Virus record (IMG/VR): IMGVR_UViG_3300000169_000002
Location: 1-64,000 of that record
Direction: 5' to 3' (one strand)
Source of the DNA: a virus
Taxonomy: Duplodnaviria; Caudoviricetes
DNA length: 64,000 nt
In this document: in pieces, positions 22,016 to 59,356 of the stretch
Layout of the letters: the number at the start of each line of letters is the position of its first letter
Position numbering within the stretch: position 1 is the first letter of the stretch
Program-made: the position numbers and the translations under genes
The notes under the pieces: generated by a model
Told to the model about the DNA's origin: nothing
The model's input: only the letters and a program-made list of their open reading frames with translations
Databases searched by the model: none

Positions 22016-22098
22016 CGCAGGACGAATTTTCCAATTTCAGGTAGAGGGAGGAATTTCTATGTTCCTCCCTCTATCCATCCCAACATTTCAATACATAT

Positions 22099-22172
22099 CT
22101 GGATGTAGCTCAGTTTGGTAGAGCACATGCCTTGGGAGCATGGGGTCGCAGGTTCGAATCCTGTCATCCAGA
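22099..22172 (+). tRNA. tRNA-Pro(UGG), CCA not encoded
   Basis: Acceptor CTGGATG/CATCCAG, anticodon arm CATGC-CTTGGGA-GCATG, T-loop GGTTCGAATCC. Confidence 0.93.
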
Positions 22173-22181
22173 TCTTTTCGT

Positions 22182-22257
22182 GGACCCGTAGCTCAGTGGT
22201 CAGAGCGGTCGGCTCATAACCGATTGGTCGCGGGTTCGAATCCCTCCGGGTCCACCA
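22182..22257 (+). tRNA. tRNA with CAU anticodon, most likely tRNA-Ile2 (lysidine-modified, reads AUA)
   Basis: Cloverleaf with CTCATAA loop and ACCA end. GGACC.. acceptor with C4:G69 and C5:G68 resembles bacterial Ile2 rather than Met. Confidence 0.85.
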
Positions 22258-22274
22258 ACTTAAATTTTAATCGC

Positions 22275-22357
22275 GCCGGGGTGGCGGAATTGGCAGACGC
22301 ACGGGACTTAAAATCCCGCGACTTCGGGTCATGGGGGTTCGAGTCCCCTCCTCGGCA
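22275..22357 (+). tRNA. tRNA-Leu(UAA), CCA not encoded
   Basis: GCCGGGG/CCTCGGC acceptor, CGGGA-CTTAAAA-TCCCG anticodon arm, long variable arm, GGTTCGAGTCC. Confidence 0.93.
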
Positions 22358-37590: not shown

Positions 37591-38167
37591 TTTTTTTAAA
37601 AAAATTTGTATTGAGGAATGTATAGATTATCTGAAAGACAAAATTCCTCCGGTTAAAGGAGTTCATGTTATCGAAAATGATGATAATGATAACTCCTTTC
37701 TGGATGATATCGGGGGAGCTTTGTGTACAGTTAAATATAATGATATTAATATCTATTGTGAAATATATATTTCAGGCGATATATTAGAATACTATAAAAA
37801 ATATAAAGAACGAGATAGAAGGGAAAAATTCCTGAGATCATTAGGAGTACCTGTTAACAAATACTCCTTGTTTTTAATAGTATTACTCCATGAATTTGGA
37901 CACTCAAATTTAGTAAAAATGTTTTACGATGCAGGAATCATAGATGACTATAATATATTTGATACTATTTCAGACTCACTCTCTTCTATTTTTGAAAAAC
38001 GAGAGGAGACTCTTTTAAAATGGGAATTCCGTTACAAAAACAATGAACTTACAAATATCGTTAACGGGATAGAATCCCAAAGTGATATTTTTGCAAGGGA
38101 TAATTTTCTTCCATTATGGAAGAAATTGAATAAAATTTTAAGGTCTTACAAGTTAGACGAACTTTGA
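37550..38167 (+). CDS. HExxH zinc-metallopeptidase-like protein (paralog)
   Basis: LLHEFGH and IESQSDIFA. Confidence 0.65.
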   Translation: MIKITKKNINSKFDFFKKICIEECIDYLKDKIPPVKGVHVIENDDNDNSFLDDIGGALCTVKYNDINIYCEIYISGDILEYYKKYKERDRREKFLRSLGVPVNKYSLFLIVLLHEFGHSNLVKMFYDAGIIDDYNIFDTISDSLSSIFEKREETLLKWEFRYKNNELTNIVNGIESQSDIFARDNFLPLWKKLNKILRSYKLDEL

Positions 38168-47501: not shown

Positions 47502-47534
47502 TTATATATATAAATCTCAACATATTCATACAAA

Positions 47535-47544
47535 TATATATTAT
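47535..47544 (+). promoter_or_regulatory. Early-type promoter
   Basis: AAATATATATTATT..ATGTG. Confidence 0.65.
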
Positions 47545-47594
47545 TCATATGTGGACTTTTGAAACTTTAAAAATTAGTTAGGAGGTGCTTTAAC

Positions 47595-47732
47595 ATGCAG
47601 CAAAATAATAACTCTAAACCTATTAAAAAACAACCAGAAATTCCTATCAAAGGCGGCCTCATTCAAGAAGTTGCTTTGGGCGAAATGATTGCCCAACAGC
47701 AACTCAATGAATCTCAAGTTAAGAAAAGCTAA
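47595..47732 (+). CDS. Small hypothetical protein (45 aa)
   Basis: AGGAGGT RBS; MQQNNNSKPIKKQPEIPIKGGLIQEVALGEMIAQQQLNESQVKKS; followed by a hairpin and T tract. Confidence 0.6.
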   Translation: MQQNNNSKPIKKQPEIPIKGGLIQEVALGEMIAQQQLNESQVKKS

Positions 47733-47849
47733 AGCGCCTTGCTTTAGCTTACTTTTTATTAATCTCTAAAAATATCCAATAATTGTATCTAGATATTTTT
47801 AAAACTGTGATAATTTTTAGTTTAAACCAAATTTTAGGAGGTTAAAATT

Positions 47850-51837: not shown

Positions 51838-53205
51838 ATGAGAGGAATGATAAATTTGGGTCTCCTCGAAATGATCCAAAAACAGCGTAAGGCTGAGAAA
51901 AAATTTGACGATATTGTAATTAATGAAATTAGCTATCCTACAGGTTTGCTTCCTCTTGATTACGCAAATGGTGTAAGAATAACATCTTATGATGAAAATG
52001 ATAGACCGATTGCAAAATTTGATTCTATCGGTATTGTTGGTGGGACATTTGTTACGACTATCGGGATTTCCGGAACAGGTAAAACAGCACTTGCTATTGA
52101 TATTGCAGTTTGTGGTATTCACAAATTTGGAGAAATGTCTGCCGTAGATCATTTCGATCTTGAGCTGGCATCCACTATGCAAAGACCTCTTACGATCACC
52201 AGAATAAAACCATCTCTTTTGAAGAAAACTTATGCAATTTATCGTGATCGTGCCGCAGAGGATGTTGTAGATATCTTCAAAACACACTGTCAATTGAAGC
52301 TCGATAATAGAAAACTTTTCACATATAAAACAGGCATTCGCAATATGTTTGGCGAAGAAATTGAAGAGCTTTATCCGTCATTTTCTTTGATCGATTCGTT
52401 TGCAATGTTCAAATCTGGAGAACTTGATTTGGGCAAAAAGAAAGTTGAGGATATTACGAATAATATGCAAGCGGCAACTTCCGCAAAGTTTAATAAAGCT
52501 ATTCTCTCTCAAATGCTTGCATATGGAAAGAAAGCAAATGTTGGCATTATTGCCGTTAACCATATTAACCAAGACGTAAACACAGGCTTCTTACCAAAGC
52601 CGAGTCAACATATGTATTTATCCCAAGGAGAAACGATGCCTGGCGGCACAGCATCTTTGTACCTTGCGAATAACATCATCAAATTGAAACTGATTAAGAA
52701 GTACAATATCGACAAACCGGATACCATGGAATATGGAATTCCTGGTTTCTTGGTTGAAGCGAAATTTATCAAATCTCGTACAAATGCATCGAACGTGCCA
52801 GTTGAACTGGTATTTGACCATCGCAGAGGCGGATTTTCCAAAATCTTGACTCTGTTTAATTATGCTGTGAAGAATGAACTTCTTCTCGGGAATAACAGGG
52901 GATACTATCTGCCTGGTCTTGAAAGTGTTAAATTCACGAAGAAAACGTTTAAAGACGTTGTTATAAAATCTCCTGAAGTTCTTGAAGCTTTGTATGAAGC
53001 TTGCAAACCTCATCTTGAAACTATGCTTTCTACCGATATTGGAAGATTGAGTTCGTCCGAATCTGAAACCCAAAAAATTGATGCAATGTATCTGGCCCTT
53101 GAAGAGCATGAAAAAGATATTGAATTCTATAGGGATCAAGGTTGGACAGATTTCATTAACGGTAAAACAGATTTTAATCGTAAAAAATTCTGGTACAAAA
53201 AATGA
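51838..53205 (+). CDS. RecA/UvsX-like recombinase
   Basis: PTGLLPLD, Walker A GISGTGKT, DLE, IDSFA, VNHI, PGG, KSR. Confidence 0.85.
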   Translation: MRGMINLGLLEMIQKQRKAEKKFDDIVINEISYPTGLLPLDYANGVRITSYDENDRPIAKFDSIGIVGGTFVTTIGISGTGKTALAIDIAVCGIHKFGEMSAVDHFDLELASTMQRPLTITRIKPSLLKKTYAIYRDRAAEDVVDIFKTHCQLKLDNRKLFTYKTGIRNMFGEEIEELYPSFSLIDSFAMFKSGELDLGKKKVEDITNNMQAATSAKFNKAILSQMLAYGKKANVGIIAVNHINQDVNTGFLPKPSQHMYLSQGETMPGGTASLYLANNIIKLKLIKKYNIDKPDTMEYGIPGFLVEAKFIKSRTNASNVPVELVFDHRRGGFSKILTLFNYAVKNELLLGNNRGYYLPGLESVKFTKKTFKDVVIKSPEVLEALYEACKPHLETMLSTDIGRLSSSESETQKIDAMYLALEEHEKDIEFYRDQGWTDFINGKTDFNRKKFWYKK

Positions 53206-53284: not shown

Positions 53285-53644
53285 ATGTCTAAATTAAAGA
53301 TTGATCAAATTGTAGAAGATTGTATACTTTTAAGCACAAGCTTACCACAGATATCTGTGGCCGAGTGTATTGAATTGACAAAGATTGTTCATTCTCATAA
53401 TTGTAGAGTATGCGATTACCCGGAATATCAAAGTAAATTCATTCAACATCCTGAAGAAATTATTTTACATTTAAAATCAATTATCGTTAATAACGATTTT
53501 GAAGCAGTTATTTTTAATAAACGTGTAGCCGATAGGACTTATAAAATAATTATTAAATTTATTCAATTAGATTCAAAAAATATGGCACAAATTTTGATAT
53601 ATAAAAGCGAACCTGACAGGAGGATTCCCGATGCTTCAACCTGA
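53285..53644 (+). CDS. Hypothetical protein
   Basis: 119-aa ORF with AGGGTG RBS, overlapping the RNAP gene start. Confidence 0.65.
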   Translation: MSKLKIDQIVEDCILLSTSLPQISVAECIELTKIVHSHNCRVCDYPEYQSKFIQHPEEIILHLKSIIVNNDFEAVIFNKRVADRTYKIIIKFIQLDSKNMAQILIYKSEPDRRIPDAST

Positions 53645-55715
53645 GCAAATGGAAGAACTTGACCGAATTGCAAGTGAACTGAAAAACATTGACCATGCAT
53701 ATGGGAGCGGGTTATTCATCCCGTTGGGTAACAAAGTAAACTCTTCCCGTGCAGCTTTGGTTTATCAACAAATTGGCCAGTCTAAAAATTTGGAAAAGCC
53801 TGAAATTCCAAGAATCGTGACCGGCTATGAAAAAGCCTTTGGTGATAGATCCACGTCTTATCTCAAAGCTGATAGAAGATATGAAGTCGTCGAAAAGATT
53901 AGAAAATTCGATAATGATTATGTATATGCATTGGTAGTTAAAGAAGTAGGAAGAAACTATTATGACATTATTTTCAGAAATGAAGTTGAATCCTTCGCAG
54001 AATCTGCTGGTGTGCGAATGGATAATGAAAATATTGATTCTAAGAAAGTTGGAGATATTATTGAGGAAGGAGAAATTCTCTATAAGTCCCGCTCCTATGA
54101 TGAAAATATGAACTATCGCCTTGGTATCAATGCAAAAACCTTGTATCTCGTTGATCCGGCGATTGTTGAGGATGCATTTAGAATTTCTGATACACTTGCA
54201 AAAAGGTTGAAAACTACTGAAGTGAATACGTTCAAGATCCCTAAAAATACTAACGATATTCTGCTTAACTTGTATGGGGATAATGAAGAATATAAAGCAT
54301 TTCCGGATATCGGCGAAAAGGTAAAGAATAAAGTTCTGTGTGGGCGACGCAGAATTGACTATAACAATGCTCAATATATGCTGAAGAGCAAAAATCTTAG
54401 AAAAGAAATGTTTGGAGATACACTTTATTATACTGAAGGAACTGTCATCGATATTGACATCTTTTCGAACATCCCTATCGAAGAAGTTCCGAATGATAAA
54501 GTTAACAAACAAATTCTCAAGTATATGAAAATGATTAATAGATATTGGCAAGAGCTTAAGAGGGTATTGGGTCGAATCGTTGAAAATCCTGAAAACGAAT
54601 ATTCCGATCAGATCGGAATTACCTATGCCAGGGCTAAAGACGTGATGAGTATTGGTAAATATGTAAAATGGGATGACGACGGCTCGATTTTCGATAGCAT
54701 GATTATCTATATTACTGTGGTGAATACAAAAAATGCTGTTATTGGAACGAAACTTGTGGGTCGCCATGGTAATAAAGGTGTCGTTTCAGAAATTGTTCCT
54801 GAAAAATATATGCCAAAGAGCGAAGATGGTGAACATGCTGAAATTATTTTCAGTGCGCTCAGTGTAATTGGGCGACTTAATCCGTCTCAGCTTTATGAAT
54901 TGGAATTGAACTGGATTGTTGATGAAATTCTATCTGGCGACGTTTCAAATAAAAAGAAATTTGAGGCTTTGTTGGATTTCCTCTCTATCTGTAATCCGGA
55001 TCAGGAGAAACAAGTTAGAGAATTTTATGAATCTCTCAATAAAGAAGAGAAAGAAGAATTTCTTTCTCAAATAACTAAAGAATTCGTAGTATTTCAACCT
55101 CCGAGCATGTCTATTAGTTTTAAAAATTATGGTGAACTGATCGAGAAATTCAAACCGAAAAAGAAGAAGTTCACCATTATGGACGAATCTGGTAAAGTGT
55201 TTAATATCCAAAGAAAACTTATTATGTCTGATACGTATATTTATAGATTGAAACATGAACCGATTACAAAATTCTCGGTCAGATCTAAAGGTACGATCAA
55301 TCCTAGAACTTTCCTTCCGATTAAATCTCATGCATATAGCAGAGGGACTGCACTGTTTAACAATCAGGCAATACGGATTGGAAATATGGAAATGGATATT
55401 CTCAATTTGTGTAATGACCCTGCGGCTATTAACTATTTCACGCGACTGTATTGCACATCTGTGATTGGGCGTCGCGAATTTGCACAGTTGTTGTATACAA
55501 ACTTGTTTTCTGAAGATCTTGAAATTGAAATGGAGAATCCAAAGTCCAGGGTTGTTGACCTGTTCAATGCTACATTTATGGTATGTGGTATGGCTTTGGA
55601 ATTTGAATATGGAAAAACTAAGGATGTTGAGGAATTCTTCCTTGAAGAACTGAAACAGATGGACAAGAAAACAATCAAAGTAGTATTTGGTGGATGGGAT
55701 AAATTAAGAGTATAA
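53631..55715 (+). CDS. RNA polymerase beta subunit, C-terminal half (probably non-virion RNAP)
   Basis: TGYE, EDA, GTKLVGRHGNKGVVS, GRLN, YIYRLKH, RIGNME; early-type promoter. Confidence 0.92.
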   Translation: MLQPEQMEELDRIASELKNIDHAYGSGLFIPLGNKVNSSRAALVYQQIGQSKNLEKPEIPRIVTGYEKAFGDRSTSYLKADRRYEVVEKIRKFDNDYVYALVVKEVGRNYYDIIFRNEVESFAESAGVRMDNENIDSKKVGDIIEEGEILYKSRSYDENMNYRLGINAKTLYLVDPAIVEDAFRISDTLAKRLKTTEVNTFKIPKNTNDILLNLYGDNEEYKAFPDIGEKVKNKVLCGRRRIDYNNAQYMLKSKNLRKEMFGDTLYYTEGTVIDIDIFSNIPIEEVPNDKVNKQILKYMKMINRYWQELKRVLGRIVENPENEYSDQIGITYARAKDVMSIGKYVKWDDDGSIFDSMIIYITVVNTKNAVIGTKLVGRHGNKGVVSEIVPEKYMPKSEDGEHAEIIFSALSVIGRLNPSQLYELELNWIVDEILSGDVSNKKKFEALLDFLSICNPDQEKQVREFYESLNKEEKEEFLSQITKEFVVFQPPSMSISFKNYGELIEKFKPKKKKFTIMDESGKVFNIQRKLIMSDTYIYRLKHEPITKFSVRSKGTINPRTFLPIKSHAYSRGTALFNNQAIRIGNMEMDILNLCNDPAAINYFTRLYCTSVIGRREFAQLLYTNLFSEDLEIEMENPKSRVVDLFNATFMVCGMALEFEYGKTKDVEEFFLEELKQMDKKTIKVVFGGWDKLRV

Positions 55716-55878: not shown

Positions 55879-58077
55879 ATGTCTAAACTTTTAAAGAAGT
55901 CCAATAAACTTCTACGAAAAATCGAAGATGGAAAATATGTCTCAGCAGTTATTGGATTACAAGATCCAGATATTATTATGGATCTTCATGAAATAACTTT
56001 TAAGCCGGATAAATCTGTTACAAAAGAAGAGCTTGAGGCTGTTGAAAATATTCTTAAAGTAAGTAAAGCACTCTACGAACTTAATCAATATATGAGTGGA
56101 TTTGTGTACAAACTTATGCCCGATGAAATGTATGACAGGCTTATTGAGAAATATAAAAATATCACGGGCGGGAAAGAACCATTTCAATCTTTCATTCCAT
56201 CTGGGATGAGAAGTGTGGAACAGGATTTTCCTGAACTGTCTGGTACTTTGGATAAAGTTTATGAGATTTATGATACTACAAATAAACCTTCTTTGGAGAA
56301 GTGGCTCAGGAAAATAATGAAAGAACTTAATGTTAAAAAACTGAAGCTTCTTGTAACTCCGAAGTTTGATGGAACTTCCGTAACTGTAACTTATGACAAA
56401 AGTGAAAGTAAAAGCCATATTGTATATCCAGTAAAAGCATTGACTCGTGGAGATTTCGAAAGAAATCTTGGAGTTGATCTGTCTAACATTCTCAAAGGTG
56501 TGGATTCTGTTTATGTAACAAGTACCGATTTCTATAACACTATTCCCAGAAGATTTGGGGTCCAGTATGAAGCAATGATTACTGAATATGGAAGGAAAAG
56601 ACTTTCTGAGGTCGTAGGAATTAATTATTCTACAAGAAGGGCGGCAATTGCTTCAGCTCTTAAAAGATTGACAAATCCAAAAACAACTGTTGAGGAGGCA
56701 AAGGAAATCAATAAGTGTATAACCCTTGTCCCTCTTATGGTTGACAATTATTTTATGCAGACATTCAGAAGAAAGATGAGTTTACACGATCTTATGATCG
56801 CAGTAAACTTTAATTTCTATATATGTGATGCTGAAAACACACTTAGCTTTGAAATAAAGTCTATCCATGGAGATATTGATTATCTGCTTTCTAAATTTAA
56901 AGAAATAGTTGAGGACTATGTAAACAGAAGAAACAGTATGAACTATAGTATTGATGGATTGGTTCTGACTATTGACGATTATAATCATATAGCGAAACTT
57001 GGAAGATCCAGTAACAAGAATAAGTGGCAAATTGCATATAAATTCGATGCCTTGACACAAAGAACGAGAATTACTGGAATCATTCCAACAATGGGAAAAC
57101 AAGGTTTCATTGGAGCCAATATCACATTCGAACCAATTGAATTTAATGGTGTTCGGTACGAGAAAGCTCCAGTGAATAATATTACAAGATTTCGTGAACT
57201 TGATCCTCATATTGGGGATGAAGTGATTGTATCCTATAACGCTGATGTTATGGGGTATATTTATAAAGATGAAACATGTACGCCTAGTAAAAATGGGGAA
57301 CCTCTTGAACTTCCAACCCATTGTATAAAATGTGGCGAACCACTAACTGTGGCTAAGGATATGTTGAAATGTGTGAATGATGACTGTCCTGGCCATAAAG
57401 TGGGAAAAATTCTTGAGACCATCCGTATATTTGACCTGGACTTTTTCGGCGAAGAAACTGCAAATGACCTCGTCGATAAAGCTGGAATCTCAGATACAAT
57501 TGAGTTCATACAAATGAAATATGAAGACTTGGCTAAAGTCCTCAAAGGTCTTAATTTGGAAAAAGCCTGGGAAGAGTTTCAAAATAAAATTAAAGCCCCG
57601 ATTGAATATCCCAAAGTAATTGACCTTTTGAGGATTCCAAGTCTTAGAACAAAAACTGCTGAAAAGATCCTTGAAGATATTCCTATAAACCAGCTCGAAG
57701 AATGGATGAAAACTGGTAATGTCAAAGAGTTATATTCCGCTCTGAAAAAAGTCAAAGGAATTGACAAAAAGGCAGATGAGTTTGCGATTGCATTGGTAAA
57801 TGCATATGAGGAATTTTCACAACTCAAGAAACTTCTTAACTGTGTAGACTCTAGTGGTAAGGAATACAATAAAGTTATTTTGGTATCAGGTTTTAGAAGC
57901 AATTCCGAATTTGACTCTATCTGCAAAAAGTTAAATTTTAAAGTAATTGAAACAGGTAGTAAATATGATTTATTGGTAGTAACTCCTGAGAGGCTCGATG
58001 GGAAGAAAGCATTACAGGCAAGAAAGAAAGGCATTCCTATAATGCTTCTTTCAGAGTTCATCAGGACATATTCTTAA
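55879..58077 (+). CDS. ligA: NAD-dependent DNA ligase
   Basis: KFDG adenylation motif, TRGD, IDGLV, IAYKF, CIKC..C...C zinc finger, HhH region, BRCT-like C-terminus. Confidence 0.9.
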   Translation: MSKLLKKSNKLLRKIEDGKYVSAVIGLQDPDIIMDLHEITFKPDKSVTKEELEAVENILKVSKALYELNQYMSGFVYKLMPDEMYDRLIEKYKNITGGKEPFQSFIPSGMRSVEQDFPELSGTLDKVYEIYDTTNKPSLEKWLRKIMKELNVKKLKLLVTPKFDGTSVTVTYDKSESKSHIVYPVKALTRGDFERNLGVDLSNILKGVDSVYVTSTDFYNTIPRRFGVQYEAMITEYGRKRLSEVVGINYSTRRAAIASALKRLTNPKTTVEEAKEINKCITLVPLMVDNYFMQTFRRKMSLHDLMIAVNFNFYICDAENTLSFEIKSIHGDIDYLLSKFKEIVEDYVNRRNSMNYSIDGLVLTIDDYNHIAKLGRSSNKNKWQIAYKFDALTQRTRITGIIPTMGKQGFIGANITFEPIEFNGVRYEKAPVNNITRFRELDPHIGDEVIVSYNADVMGYIYKDETCTPSKNGEPLELPTHCIKCGEPLTVAKDMLKCVNDDCPGHKVGKILETIRIFDLDFFGEETANDLVDKAGISDTIEFIQMKYEDLAKVLKGLNLEKAWEEFQNKIKAPIEYPKVIDLLRIPSLRTKTAEKILEDIPINQLEEWMKTGNVKELYSALKKVKGIDKKADEFAIALVNAYEEFSQLKKLLNCVDSSGKEYNKVILVSGFRSNSEFDSICKKLNFKVIETGSKYDLLVVTPERLDGKKALQARKKGIPIMLLSEFIRTYS

Positions 58078-58082
58078 TTTAA

Positions 58083-58094
58083 AACAATATATTA
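58083..58094 (+). promoter_or_regulatory. Late-type promoter for the ncRNA
   Basis: AACA-ATATAT-TA; predicted +1 at 58094 is the first base of the long closing stem. Confidence 0.6.
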
Positions 58095-58391
58095 GGATGC
58101 GGAAAAGTGTGATGAGTCATATTAAGCAAGGTTAAGGGGAACCGTCGAATCCGGCATTTGGTTCTTTTGAAAAACTGAGACTTCGAATTATCCCGCCTAA
58201 TACGATAGGGATGATTATAGCAATCTTGCCTCGGATTTTTCCGTCTGGGTTAATTAGCTGTGGGCTATTAACTGTCGCGGGAAGAGAAGAGAAACTTGCT
58301 GAAGTTCTCAGAAAAGAGCGGCAATGCTGGTAGATGGTAAATTGTTTGGTGGGGGTAAGTTAATAGACTCATTATCACACTCCGCTATCCT
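58094..58391 (+). ncRNA. Candidate ~300-nt structured non-coding RNA, family not recognised
   Basis: 5' and 3' ends pair over about 30 bp, several internal hairpins with G-U pairs, no credible ORF, flanked by a promoter and a terminator-like hairpin. Confidence 0.7.
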
Positions 58392-58400
58392 TAATATAGA

Positions 58401-58437
58401 GGCCAGGAGTCTTATAGACTCCTGGCCCAATCACTTT
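58401..58437 (+). terminator. Strong hairpin closing the ncRNA transcription unit
   Basis: GGCCAGGAGTC/GACTCCTGGCC perfect 11-bp stem; the T tract is weak. Confidence 0.6.
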
Positions 58438-58459
58438 AAAATTTCAATTTTTAGAGAAG

Positions 58460-58577
58460 TATATATTATTGTATTGGTAAAGAAACATCTTTATCGAACT
58501 ATAGTATTAATTATGGGGTGATGTTTATAGAAATATAAGTGAATAAAATTCACTTACTTTTGGAAAATATATATTAT
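58460..58577 (+). promoter_or_regulatory. Tandem early-type promoters (58460-58469 and 58568-58577)
   Basis: Two TATATATTATT copies upstream of 58649. Confidence 0.6.
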
Positions 58578-58648
58578 TACATTGTGAAAGACACAATATT
58601 AGCAATAATATGTGTCTTTAAATATCAACAAATGGGAGGAAAAAAGAA

Positions 58649-59356
58649 ATGGCGAAAAAACTGATCGAGATCACCAACTCTGTTGCCAGCAAAGCATTTT
58701 ATTGTGAAAAGGATGTCGGCGGCGAAGCCAAAAAGGCAGAGGTCGACATTGCGGTTCAATCCATTATCGATACCGGCATTTCGAATGCAATTCCGCGGAC
58801 TCTCTATCTCATGATGGAACAAGATCCGCGGGAAGAAGTGCAGCTGGTCTTGGGGCCCTTCACGTATGGCCTCATTGCCAGGAAATCCGGCGAAGACGGC
58901 CTCTCGTTCAACCCCACGTTCAGCTTGACTGACGAAAAGAAACTTCTCAATGAACTGGAGCTTTTCGCCGACAAGCTGACCAACCGTGTTGGCATGATCG
59001 AAGAAATGGCCAACGCGATTGACAACGAAGTTTATCTGGAGACGGTCCTCCACACCTGCAGACTGGATGAATATGATCCGGTTGAAGGCGAATGGATCGA
59101 AAAGAAAGCCGACGCCGACAAGGGTGTTGAACTCGACCAAACGGCAGCCAAGCTGTTCACGGCGCTGCACATTTCTGCAATTCTGCATGTTCTGGCCGAC
59201 AAAAAGAATCCGGATGAAGTCTTCAAATATGAAGTTCCCGGCGAAGGAACTTACACCATTGAAAGAAAGAAAGACAAATGGGAAATCGGCTTCATCCCGT
59301 CCAAGGAATTCAAGCAAACCATCAAGAACGACCGGCTCATCGAAGCTCTTGTCTGA
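58649..59356 (+). CDS. Hypothetical protein (GC-rich codon class), possible tandem HU-like fold
   Basis: 235-aa ORF with GGAGG RBS; C-terminal VPGEGTY...FIPSKEFKQTIK resembles the HU C-terminus (function inferred). Confidence 0.7.
   Translation: MAKKLIEITNSVASKAFYCEKDVGGEAKKAEVDIAVQSIIDTGISNAIPRTLYLMMEQDPREEVQLVLGPFTYGLIARKSGEDGLSFNPTFSLTDEKKLLNELELFADKLTNRVGMIEEMANAIDNEVYLETVLHTCRLDEYDPVEGEWIEKKADADKGVELDQTAAKLFTALHISAILHVLADKKNPDEVFKYEVPGEGTYTIERKKDKWEIGFIPSKEFKQTIKNDRLIEALV

Follow-up and report, generated by a model that had tools for sequence, protein, structure and literature searches.

The locus considered here raises the question of what is encoded by an uncommonly long gene-free gap which directly follows the DNA ligase gene of a phage known from metagenomic sequence. 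The window, meaning the whole stretch of 64,000 nucleotides (nt) analysed, constitutes the first 64 kb of the 93.8-kb IMG/VR viral contig IMGVR_UViG_3300000169_000002, whose completeness was estimated as about 44%. Its ligase open reading frame (ORF) extends to 58077, and no real gene follows until 58649. An earlier note on this DNA had described the gap as unusually long and more G/C-rich than other intergenic DNA, and indeed the G+C content of the stretch in question amounts to 43%, while that of the remaining long gaps lies at 28-33%. The same note had assigned the gap to a discrete, stand-alone structured RNA of no recognised family. This assignment is corroborated by the conservation of promoter and terminator, by strong covariation, by a pronounced bias among G.U pairs and by the lack of any Rfam match. 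We consider it very probable that the gap accommodates a real stand-alone structured RNA gene; the gene itself, its fold, the selection acting on this fold, its strand and its boundaries are all well supported by sequence comparison.

The RNA body comprises 298 nt of the + strand (58094-58391) and folds, according to prediction, with 108 base pairs (bp) including its paired 5' and 3' ends. Its minimum free energy (MFE) on the + strand is -108 kcal/mol compared to -76.9 +/- 4.4 kcal/mol for dinucleotide shuffles (z -7.1), and not one of 100 shuffles, the control suggested in the earlier note, folds as well. For the minus strand an MFE of -78.4 kcal/mol is obtained (z -5.0). Positions 58094-58125 at the 5' end and 58360-58391 at the 3' end are paired with each other in the minimum-energy fold, as had been proposed from the letters. 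The RNA is rod-like with about 70% of its nucleotides paired, and the following elements are distinguished within it:

58094-58184, + strand: 5' strand of the closing rod, pairing with 58301-58391 through about 71 bp with bulges
58301-58391, + strand: 3' strand of the closing rod, including the conserved GGUAG
58334-58338, + strand: the conserved GGUAG of the rod's 3' strand, opposite CGNRUCC
58169-58174, + strand: unpaired purine bulge GAAAAA
58186-58216, + strand: short hairpin of the three-way junction, with a 9-bp stem and a variable 13-nt loop
58219-58300, + strand: long arm of the junction, 82 nt in four stacked helices
58233-58235 (GGA) opposite 58286-58288 (GAA), + strand: conserved 3x3 purine loop in the long arm

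Within the rod, no unpaired element exceeds the bulge of 6 nt; at the centre of the fold lies the three-way junction.

To what extent this fold is kept by selection can be judged from relatives of the phage. Six IMG/VR contigs and one metagenome contig harbour a recognisable homolog of the RNA directly 3' of a ligase gene, which provides five distinct sequences beyond that of the window; the ligases of these contigs are 62-66% identical to that of the window. A full-length alignment of six sequences, produced by a covariance model built from the window sequence alone, reveals compensatory double changes in 53 of the 108 pairs, with 91.7% of the cells paired. Controls in which the pairing partners were slid by one to three columns yield only 6-15 compensatory pairs and 40-49% pairing. 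Compensatory changes are present in each of the rod helices 1, 2, 5, 6, 7 and 8. A covariance model reduced to a core of 197 positions additionally detects the RNA in two further lineages, L160 (46 bits; ligase 57% identical to that of the window) and L168 (21 bits; 54%), both times inside the expected gap. In the resulting core alignment of eight sequences, 47 of 63 pairs show compensatory changes and 93.8% of the cells are paired, whereas slid controls of the full-length and core alignments taken together range from 6 to 21. The homologs 3' of the ligase thus display the covariation which had been named as a check on the proposal. Within the core alignment, seven of the eight pairs of the short hairpin (helix 5) have undergone compensatory changes, and the motif UGAAAA is invariant in all eight sequences, which represent seven distinct lineages. 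In the MFE structures of all seven family A lineages this motif is unpaired, at RNA positions 73-86.

The conserved consensus pairs contain G.U and A.C combinations in a ratio of 68:6. Hence, the selected fold is that of the + strand RNA, as had been claimed from the G-U pairs of the single sequence, and a strand-symmetric DNA structure is ruled out. Furthermore, the four-fold degenerate sites of the adjacent ligase gene are 35-46% identical compared to 52-70% for the RNA, which indicates that the sequence of the RNA, too, is constrained.

The alignments also allow the individual helices put forward in the earlier note to be assessed. Of six internal stems, AATTATCCC/GGGATGATT and GTTAA-TAGC/GCTA-TTAAC are conserved and carry compensatory changes. 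The other four (GCAAGGTT/AATCTTGC, GGGGAACC/GGTTCTTT, TGTCGC/GCGGCA and GAGAA-CTT/AAGTTCTC) can be formed in the window but are not conserved; with 65.6% paired cells and two compensatory pairs they perform no better than shuffled controls. Two complementarities suspected of forming pseudoknots, TTTTTCCG/CGGGAAGA and CTGAGACTTC/GAAGTTCTCAG, are real pairings as judged from their compensatory changes, yet they turn out to be plain nested helices. The alternative pairing TTATCCCGCCTAATA/TGTTTGGTGGGGGTAA competes with the well-supported short hairpin; inspected by eye, it is kept in the close homolog L004 and not in L003 or L007, in a 3' region which aligns poorly.

The boundaries of the presumed transcript are marked by two elements:

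58083-58094, + strand: late-promoter motif AACA-N6-TA of the AR9 type, AACAATATATTA, identified by pattern match
58401-58427, + strand: terminator-like hairpin with a 12-bp stem, beginning 9 nt after the last paired base

According to the AR9 transcriptome paper, the late promoters of this Bacillus phage follow the consensus AACA-N6-T(A/G), the last base of which is the transcription start (PMC5312081), and a putative late transcription unit of this kind can be recognised at the RNA locus. The last base of the motif, A58094, is at the same time the first paired base of the RNA and the predicted transcription start. This placement of +1, already indicated in the earlier note, is retained in all 14 lineages in which we find the RNA, with the predicted start located on the first paired base or within 3 nt of it. 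The motif occurs 62 times in the window and is not over-represented overall. Nineteen of the 62 matches fall within intergenic DNA, which makes up 8% of the window, and 13 lie at most 60 nt upstream of a gene start on the same strand compared to 3-5 for permuted tetramers. From this enrichment upstream of genes we conclude that the late-promoter grammar of AR9 plausibly holds in this phage. The late timing of the RNA itself is predicted from the promoter motif alone.

At the 3' side, the hairpin which had been noticed behind the last pair is present, its stem being of 12 rather than the reported 11 bp. In the phage of the window it is followed by a weak U-tract, and a simple terminator scan does not call it. 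In the relatives the equivalent place is occupied by a hairpin with compensatory changes, and 7-10 consecutive T follow it. All close homologs keep the promoter motif on the first paired base, a 5' GGGA and the terminator hairpin preceding a T-run. The next gene possesses promoters of its own, and in the relatives it lies 250-1300 nt further on.

Downstream of the terminator-like hairpin of the window, two AT-rich motifs (TATATATTATT G/A T/C ATTG; about 58455-58480 and 58563-58590, + strand) precede the gene of a 235-aa protein. They resemble an early-promoter example of AR9, AACTATATATTATGATATTG, quoted in the AR9 paper (PMC5312081). Equivalent TATATTAT motifs are observed 3' of the RNA terminator in distant relatives. 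If these assignments are correct, both the late and the early promoter grammar of AR9 would extend to distant uncultured relatives.

The distribution of the RNA extends well beyond the homologs which can be recognised by sequence. In total it is found in 14 lineages, namely the phage of the window and at least 13 related ones. Seven of eight more distant lineages, whose ligases are 42-50% identical to that of the window, exhibit an untranslated gap after the ligase gene, which measures 460-600 nt where it directly adjoins. The contig of the eighth (L169) ends 37 nt past the ligase and shows the promoter motif only; this lineage is excluded from the 14. Neither nhmmer nor covariance models recognise the RNAs in these seven gaps, and both the single-sequence model and a broadened core model fail to detect any in L161-L167, AR9 or BpSp. 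Nonetheless, each of the seven gaps contains an AACA-N6-(T/C)(A/G) motif with the predicted start at most 3 nt from the first paired base, a hairpin with T-run and at least one AR9-type early-promoter motif for the next gene. The RNAs delimited in this way are 250-315 nt long with paired ends and fold better than their shuffles (z -2.5 to -5.4). When each of the 14 RNAs is folded from its own sequence alone, a shared plan emerges in which the rod measures 53-78 bp, the short hairpin 16-31 nt and the long arm 64-85 nt; in 11 of the 14 lineages the arm falls between 78 and 85 nt. Among the distant RNAs, L162 folds differently at its MFE and L164 has one additional small hairpin, while the other five conform. 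Rod length and junction geometry accordingly persist through the loss of all detectable sequence similarity. Two diverged subfamilies carry compensatory changes of their own, and each of two complete genomes of the clade (207 and 247 kb) contains exactly one copy of the RNA. Likewise, the RNA has no second match within the 93.8-kb contig.

Three members of the distant group (L162:6212-6490, L163:6230-6498 and L167:6178-6446) make up a G+C-richer subfamily with a conserved GUGAA(G/U)AGUG ... UGCUGAAGA core around an inserted hairpin. This core resembles the GUGAAGAG ... UUGCUGAAG motifs of the window family in a different arrangement and may, judged by this resemblance, be a remnant of a common origin. 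In two others a small extra ORF is located between the ligase and RNA genes (L165:6189-6473, 94 aa; L166:6213-6737, 174 aa, the latter internally repetitive), and the RNA gene and its promoter are displaced downstream together.

Further scans enlarged this set very little. DNA pattern scans of viral and metagenome contigs returned matches which are nearly all due to chance, L132 being the only new member. A run of identical human-gut contigs matching the pattern was rejected as fortuitous since the match lies within open, coding-looking sequence. Protein scans guided by alignments of the ligase and of the RNA polymerase (RNAP) beta subunit led to the same few contigs, with L156, a contig too short to reach the RNA, as the sole addition from the RNAP-beta scan.

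Does the RNA belong to a known family? Searching the whole window against Rfam 15 (4227 models) at gathering threshold identifies three tRNAs, all located elsewhere. Relaxing the threshold to E <= 10 produces, in the RNA region, only chance matches on the terminator hairpin, and no family recurs across three homologous loci. ARAGORN detects neither a tRNA nor a tmRNA over 57900-58700. This agrees with the earlier note, which saw no hallmarks of tmRNA, RNase P, SRP or group I introns. The large central bubble by which 6S RNA would be recognised (about 10-20 nt per strand) is absent, and RF00013 gives no match at E <= 10. As to the packaging RNA (pRNA) of phi29, loop-loop complementarity amounts to only 3-5 nt including G.U and differs in position from homolog to homolog, and there is no Rfam match either. 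The reverse transcriptase domain RVT_1 (PF00078), which would be expected of a retron, is not found in the contig of the window or in two complete related genomes; the neighbours of the RNA are the ligase and a possibly HU/IHF-like protein. With respect to Y RNAs, the TROVE domain (PF05731) is not found in three phage genomes and Rfam yields no match, a host-encoded Rsr being possible. Nor do the same three genomes contain RNase III or RtcB as judged by Pfam. Nothing assigns the RNA to the riboswitches or T-boxes, as Rfam gives no match to either; the rod is closed by the RNA's own ends, and the terminator is a separate, non-overlapping hairpin.

Several established RNAs nevertheless invite comparison. 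6S RNA (RF00013) and mycobacterial Ms1 are likewise stable stand-alone RNAs of about 180-300 nt whose ends are paired into a long interrupted rod and whose shape is kept far better than their sequence. Both act by binding RNAP, whereas the RNA described here is known from its sequence and predicted fold. It differs from them in its three-way junction, in lacking a large central bubble and any Rfam match, and in being encoded by a phage with RNA polymerases of its own. The pRNA of phi29 (RF00044) is phage-encoded as well and combines a paired-end helix with a three-way junction carrying two hairpin arms. Its length, however, is 174 nt compared to about 300 nt, its loop complementarity is conserved, which is not the case here, and it originates from a phi29-like rather than an AR9-like jumbo phage. 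Adenovirus VA RNA and the EBERs of Epstein-Barr virus (EBV) are abundant base-paired rods which serve as protein decoys; as Pol III transcripts of about 160-170 nt from eukaryotic viruses, they resemble the present RNA by analogy of shape only. GOLLD, ROOL, OLE, raiA and HEARO are large non-coding RNAs (ncRNAs) with covariation support which owe their discovery to comparative genomics; several occur in phages or prophages, and their functions are known in part at best. In contrast to the single-junction rod without a match observed here, they adopt larger, "ornate" multi-junction folds and are all contained in Rfam. Finally, short promoter-to-terminator sRNA units are reported for the jumbo phages PA5oct (PMC7318152) and 201phi2-1 (PMC11512511), a likeness by description only.

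Measured against Rfam 15, the RNA would constitute a new family. A catalogue from 2023, which lists about 8,500 structured-RNA candidates from IMG/VR with an average length of 67 nt (PMC10690425), was not part of this comparison, and the novelty concerns the family, not a demonstrated new mechanism. Keyword search of the AR9 transcriptome paper (PMC5312081) brings up no mention of such an RNA, nor do the titles and abstracts returned by literature searches. The earlier note had mentioned an abundant late ncRNA of AR9. This could not be verified: antisense RNAs are all that the same paper mentions in this respect. In AR9, moreover, the ligase gene is not followed by a gap.

What, then, might the RNA do? 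An RNAP decoy, a protein sponge, an assembly RNA and a ribozyme had been named as examples in the earlier note, each of them a guess. We would envisage that transcription by the non-virion RNA polymerase of the phage is initiated at the AACA-N6-TA late promoter, with the first base of the rod as +1, that the transcript folds into an interrupted rod of about 70 bp which locks its 5' and 3' ends together and is capped by the three-way junction with its short hairpin and arm of about 82 nt, and that transcription stops at the following hairpin, giving a body of about 300 nt or about 335 nt including the terminator hairpin. Such an RNA might act in trans late in infection through shape-specific binding of a protein, as decoy or scaffold, comparable to 6S/Ms1 or VA RNA. 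We propose this because the sequence turns over fast, yet overall shape and junction geometry persist, as do a few purine-rich bulges. As a general class, a stable, trans-acting RNA recognised by its shape, i.e. a late protein-binding decoy or scaffold, is put forward tentatively and with less than even confidence; that it binds a protein at all, and which one, is a guess. A base-pairing regulator or a ribozyme is less likely. None of the 14 RNAs exposes an anti-Shine-Dalgarno motif, antisense seeds would have to be longer than the conserved single-stranded motifs, and the fast turnover of the sequence disfavours a ribozyme.

Several points weigh against the picture of a late, stand-alone RNA gene conserved across the clade. 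With six to eight sequences, the covariation counts may be inflated by shared ancestry, although the slid controls argue otherwise. The late timing would depend on a 6-base motif borrowed from AR9, and the poor U-tract of this phage makes read-through into the downstream genes possible. The architecture of the distant lineages derives from single-sequence MFE predictions. Moreover, the RNA is absent from cultured phages: blastn against 50,697 cultured-phage records gives no match, and AR9 and BpSp possess neither a copy nor a gap after the ligase gene.

A more specific function similar to that of 6S RNA or Ms1, in which host RNAP or the phage's multisubunit enzyme would be sequestered or retuned late in infection by binding to the rod, is conceivable by analogy but rather improbable. 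The phage does encode non-canonical multisubunit RNAP subunits, with the nvRNAP beta gene just upstream of the ligase, and the RNA resembles 6S and Ms1 in size, paired ends and low conservation of sequence combined with high conservation of shape. On the other hand, a rod whose largest bulge measures 6 nt offers no large central bubble, no 6S match is obtained, and inspection by eye reveals no mimic of the template strand of the late promoter. In a narrower form of this idea, the RNA would be a dedicated regulator of the phage's sigma-less multisubunit RNAPs, binding the non-virion or virion RNAP late for shut-off of late transcription or for loading of the polymerase into virions. We regard this narrower form as quite unlikely; if true, this polymerase lineage would thereby gain its first known RNA regulator.

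The RNA could alternatively be a decoy directed against host defence or host RNases, its imperfect duplex soaking up a dsRNA-sensing or -cutting host protein much as VA RNA does with PKR. The rod-like, highly paired fold, the preservation of shape under fast sequence turnover as in an arms race, and the lack of a detectable phage RNase III would be in line with such a role. We nevertheless deem it unlikely, as there is no candidate for the host or the host target, and the conserved junction and invariant bulge suggest a ligand more specific than generic dsRNA binders.

A cis-acting element is likewise unlikely, whether as a 5' stabiliser or leader of late read-through mRNAs or as a structured insulator that separates the ligase operon from the genes with early promoters. 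The weak U-tract of this phage's terminator would permit read-through, and the downstream genes, which have early-type promoters only, might need it for late expression. The relatives, however, possess strong terminators of hairpin plus T-run, and between the RNA and the next gene there are a further 580 nt or so in L004 and an extra gene in L006 and L007. In addition, a stabiliser would need far less than a fold of 300 nt in which 47 of 63 core pairs covary and one bulge is invariant.

A replication element, that is an R-loop or primer at an origin comparable to ColE1 RNA II or the oriF/oriG transcripts of T4, is very unlikely. Its attraction lies in the location within the replication module, between the UvsX-like recombinase and ligase on one side and a polymerase-family gene on the other, and in the AT-rich, promoter-containing stretch which follows the RNA. 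Yet near 58 kb the cumulative GC skew continues without a turn, ends which are locked in a duplex and followed by a terminator fit a released, stable RNA, and selection has acted on RNA pairing including G.U.

Still less credible is a structural or assembly RNA in the manner of the phi29 packaging RNA, or a ribozyme. Paired ends and a three-way junction do recall pRNA, production at a late stage, deduced from the promoter motif, would coincide with particle assembly, and catalysis or a place in ribonucleoproteins is common among large structured RNAs. The loops, however, are devoid of conserved complementarity and no pRNA match is found in Rfam, and a single-junction, rod-dominated fold whose similarity is lost in relatives argues against a catalytic core. 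That the locus is no RNA gene at all, being instead a DNA-level inverted repeat or a small protein gene, can be virtually discarded: the minus strand also beats its shuffles and short ORFs of 36-65 aa overlap the region, but the G.U:A.C ratio is incompatible with a strand-symmetric structure, and the short ORFs are not conserved, the 40-aa ORF losing its start codon and frame in the homologs, which differ by non-triplet indels.

The RNA is spread through a whole clade of uncultured AR9-like jumbo phages, with a putative phage-polymerase promoter of its own. To our knowledge, structured ncRNAs of 300 nt with comparable covariation are rare. Such RNAs, once their function has been solved, have usually proved to be ribozymes, cores of ribonucleoproteins or global regulators. 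The present RNA is small enough to be synthesised and hence provides a concrete target for studying RNA-based functions of giant phages, its combination of a rod with a three-way junction being suited to structural work.

The genes which flank the RNA gap form a replication and transcription module:

51838-53205: UvsX-like recombinase
53631-55715: fragment gene of a multisubunit RNA polymerase beta subunit (nvRNAP beta), just 5' of the ligase
55879-58077: NAD-dependent DNA ligase of 732 aa
58649-59356, + strand: gene of the 235-aa protein, the next real gene 3' of the RNA
following the 235-aa gene: a 626-aa protein of a phage "polymerase" family

Among cultured phages, it is the Bacillus jumbo phages of the AR9/PBS1 type whose ligases come closest to that of the window. 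As identity to these reaches only 27%, the source phage is, on this sequence comparison, a distant, uncultured relative of AR9. A listing of sequencing runs contains no RNA run with the stretch; two manure-metagenome DNA runs contain part of it.

The 235-aa protein encoded directly 3' of the RNA is acidic (pI 4.8), conserved and often duplicated in relatives. Searches of Pfam, PHROG, PDB sequences and Foldseek return no match, and tblastn against cultured phages is negative. Its AlphaFold model is confident (pLDDT 90). The best rows of a VIA-align comparison are microtubule inner proteins (Z 7.8-8.5), with single-chain IHF (2iif) at Z 6.4 and IHF/HU at Z of about 4. A tandem HU/IHF-like fold is plausible but weakly supported by this model, and a sliding clamp, which was also considered, is not shown by the fold search. 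Due to its acidic character the protein is an unlikely partner of the RNA.

Elsewhere in the window, an apparent 348-nt gap (47530-47849, + strand) was considered as a second RNA gene and rejected in favour of a small unannotated protein gene: it displays a late-promoter motif at 47519, a short ORF (<50 aa) led by a Shine-Dalgarno sequence and a strong terminator hairpin. Three tRNA genes in tandem (22099-22357) are preceded by another late-promoter motif, AACATTTCAATA (22082-22093, + strand), whose end lies 6 nt from the first of them, and this cluster may, to judge from the motif, be a late transcription unit. Lastly, a gene-free, AT-rich stretch of 573 nt (37591-38163; 29% G+C) folds somewhat better than its shuffles (z -3.9).

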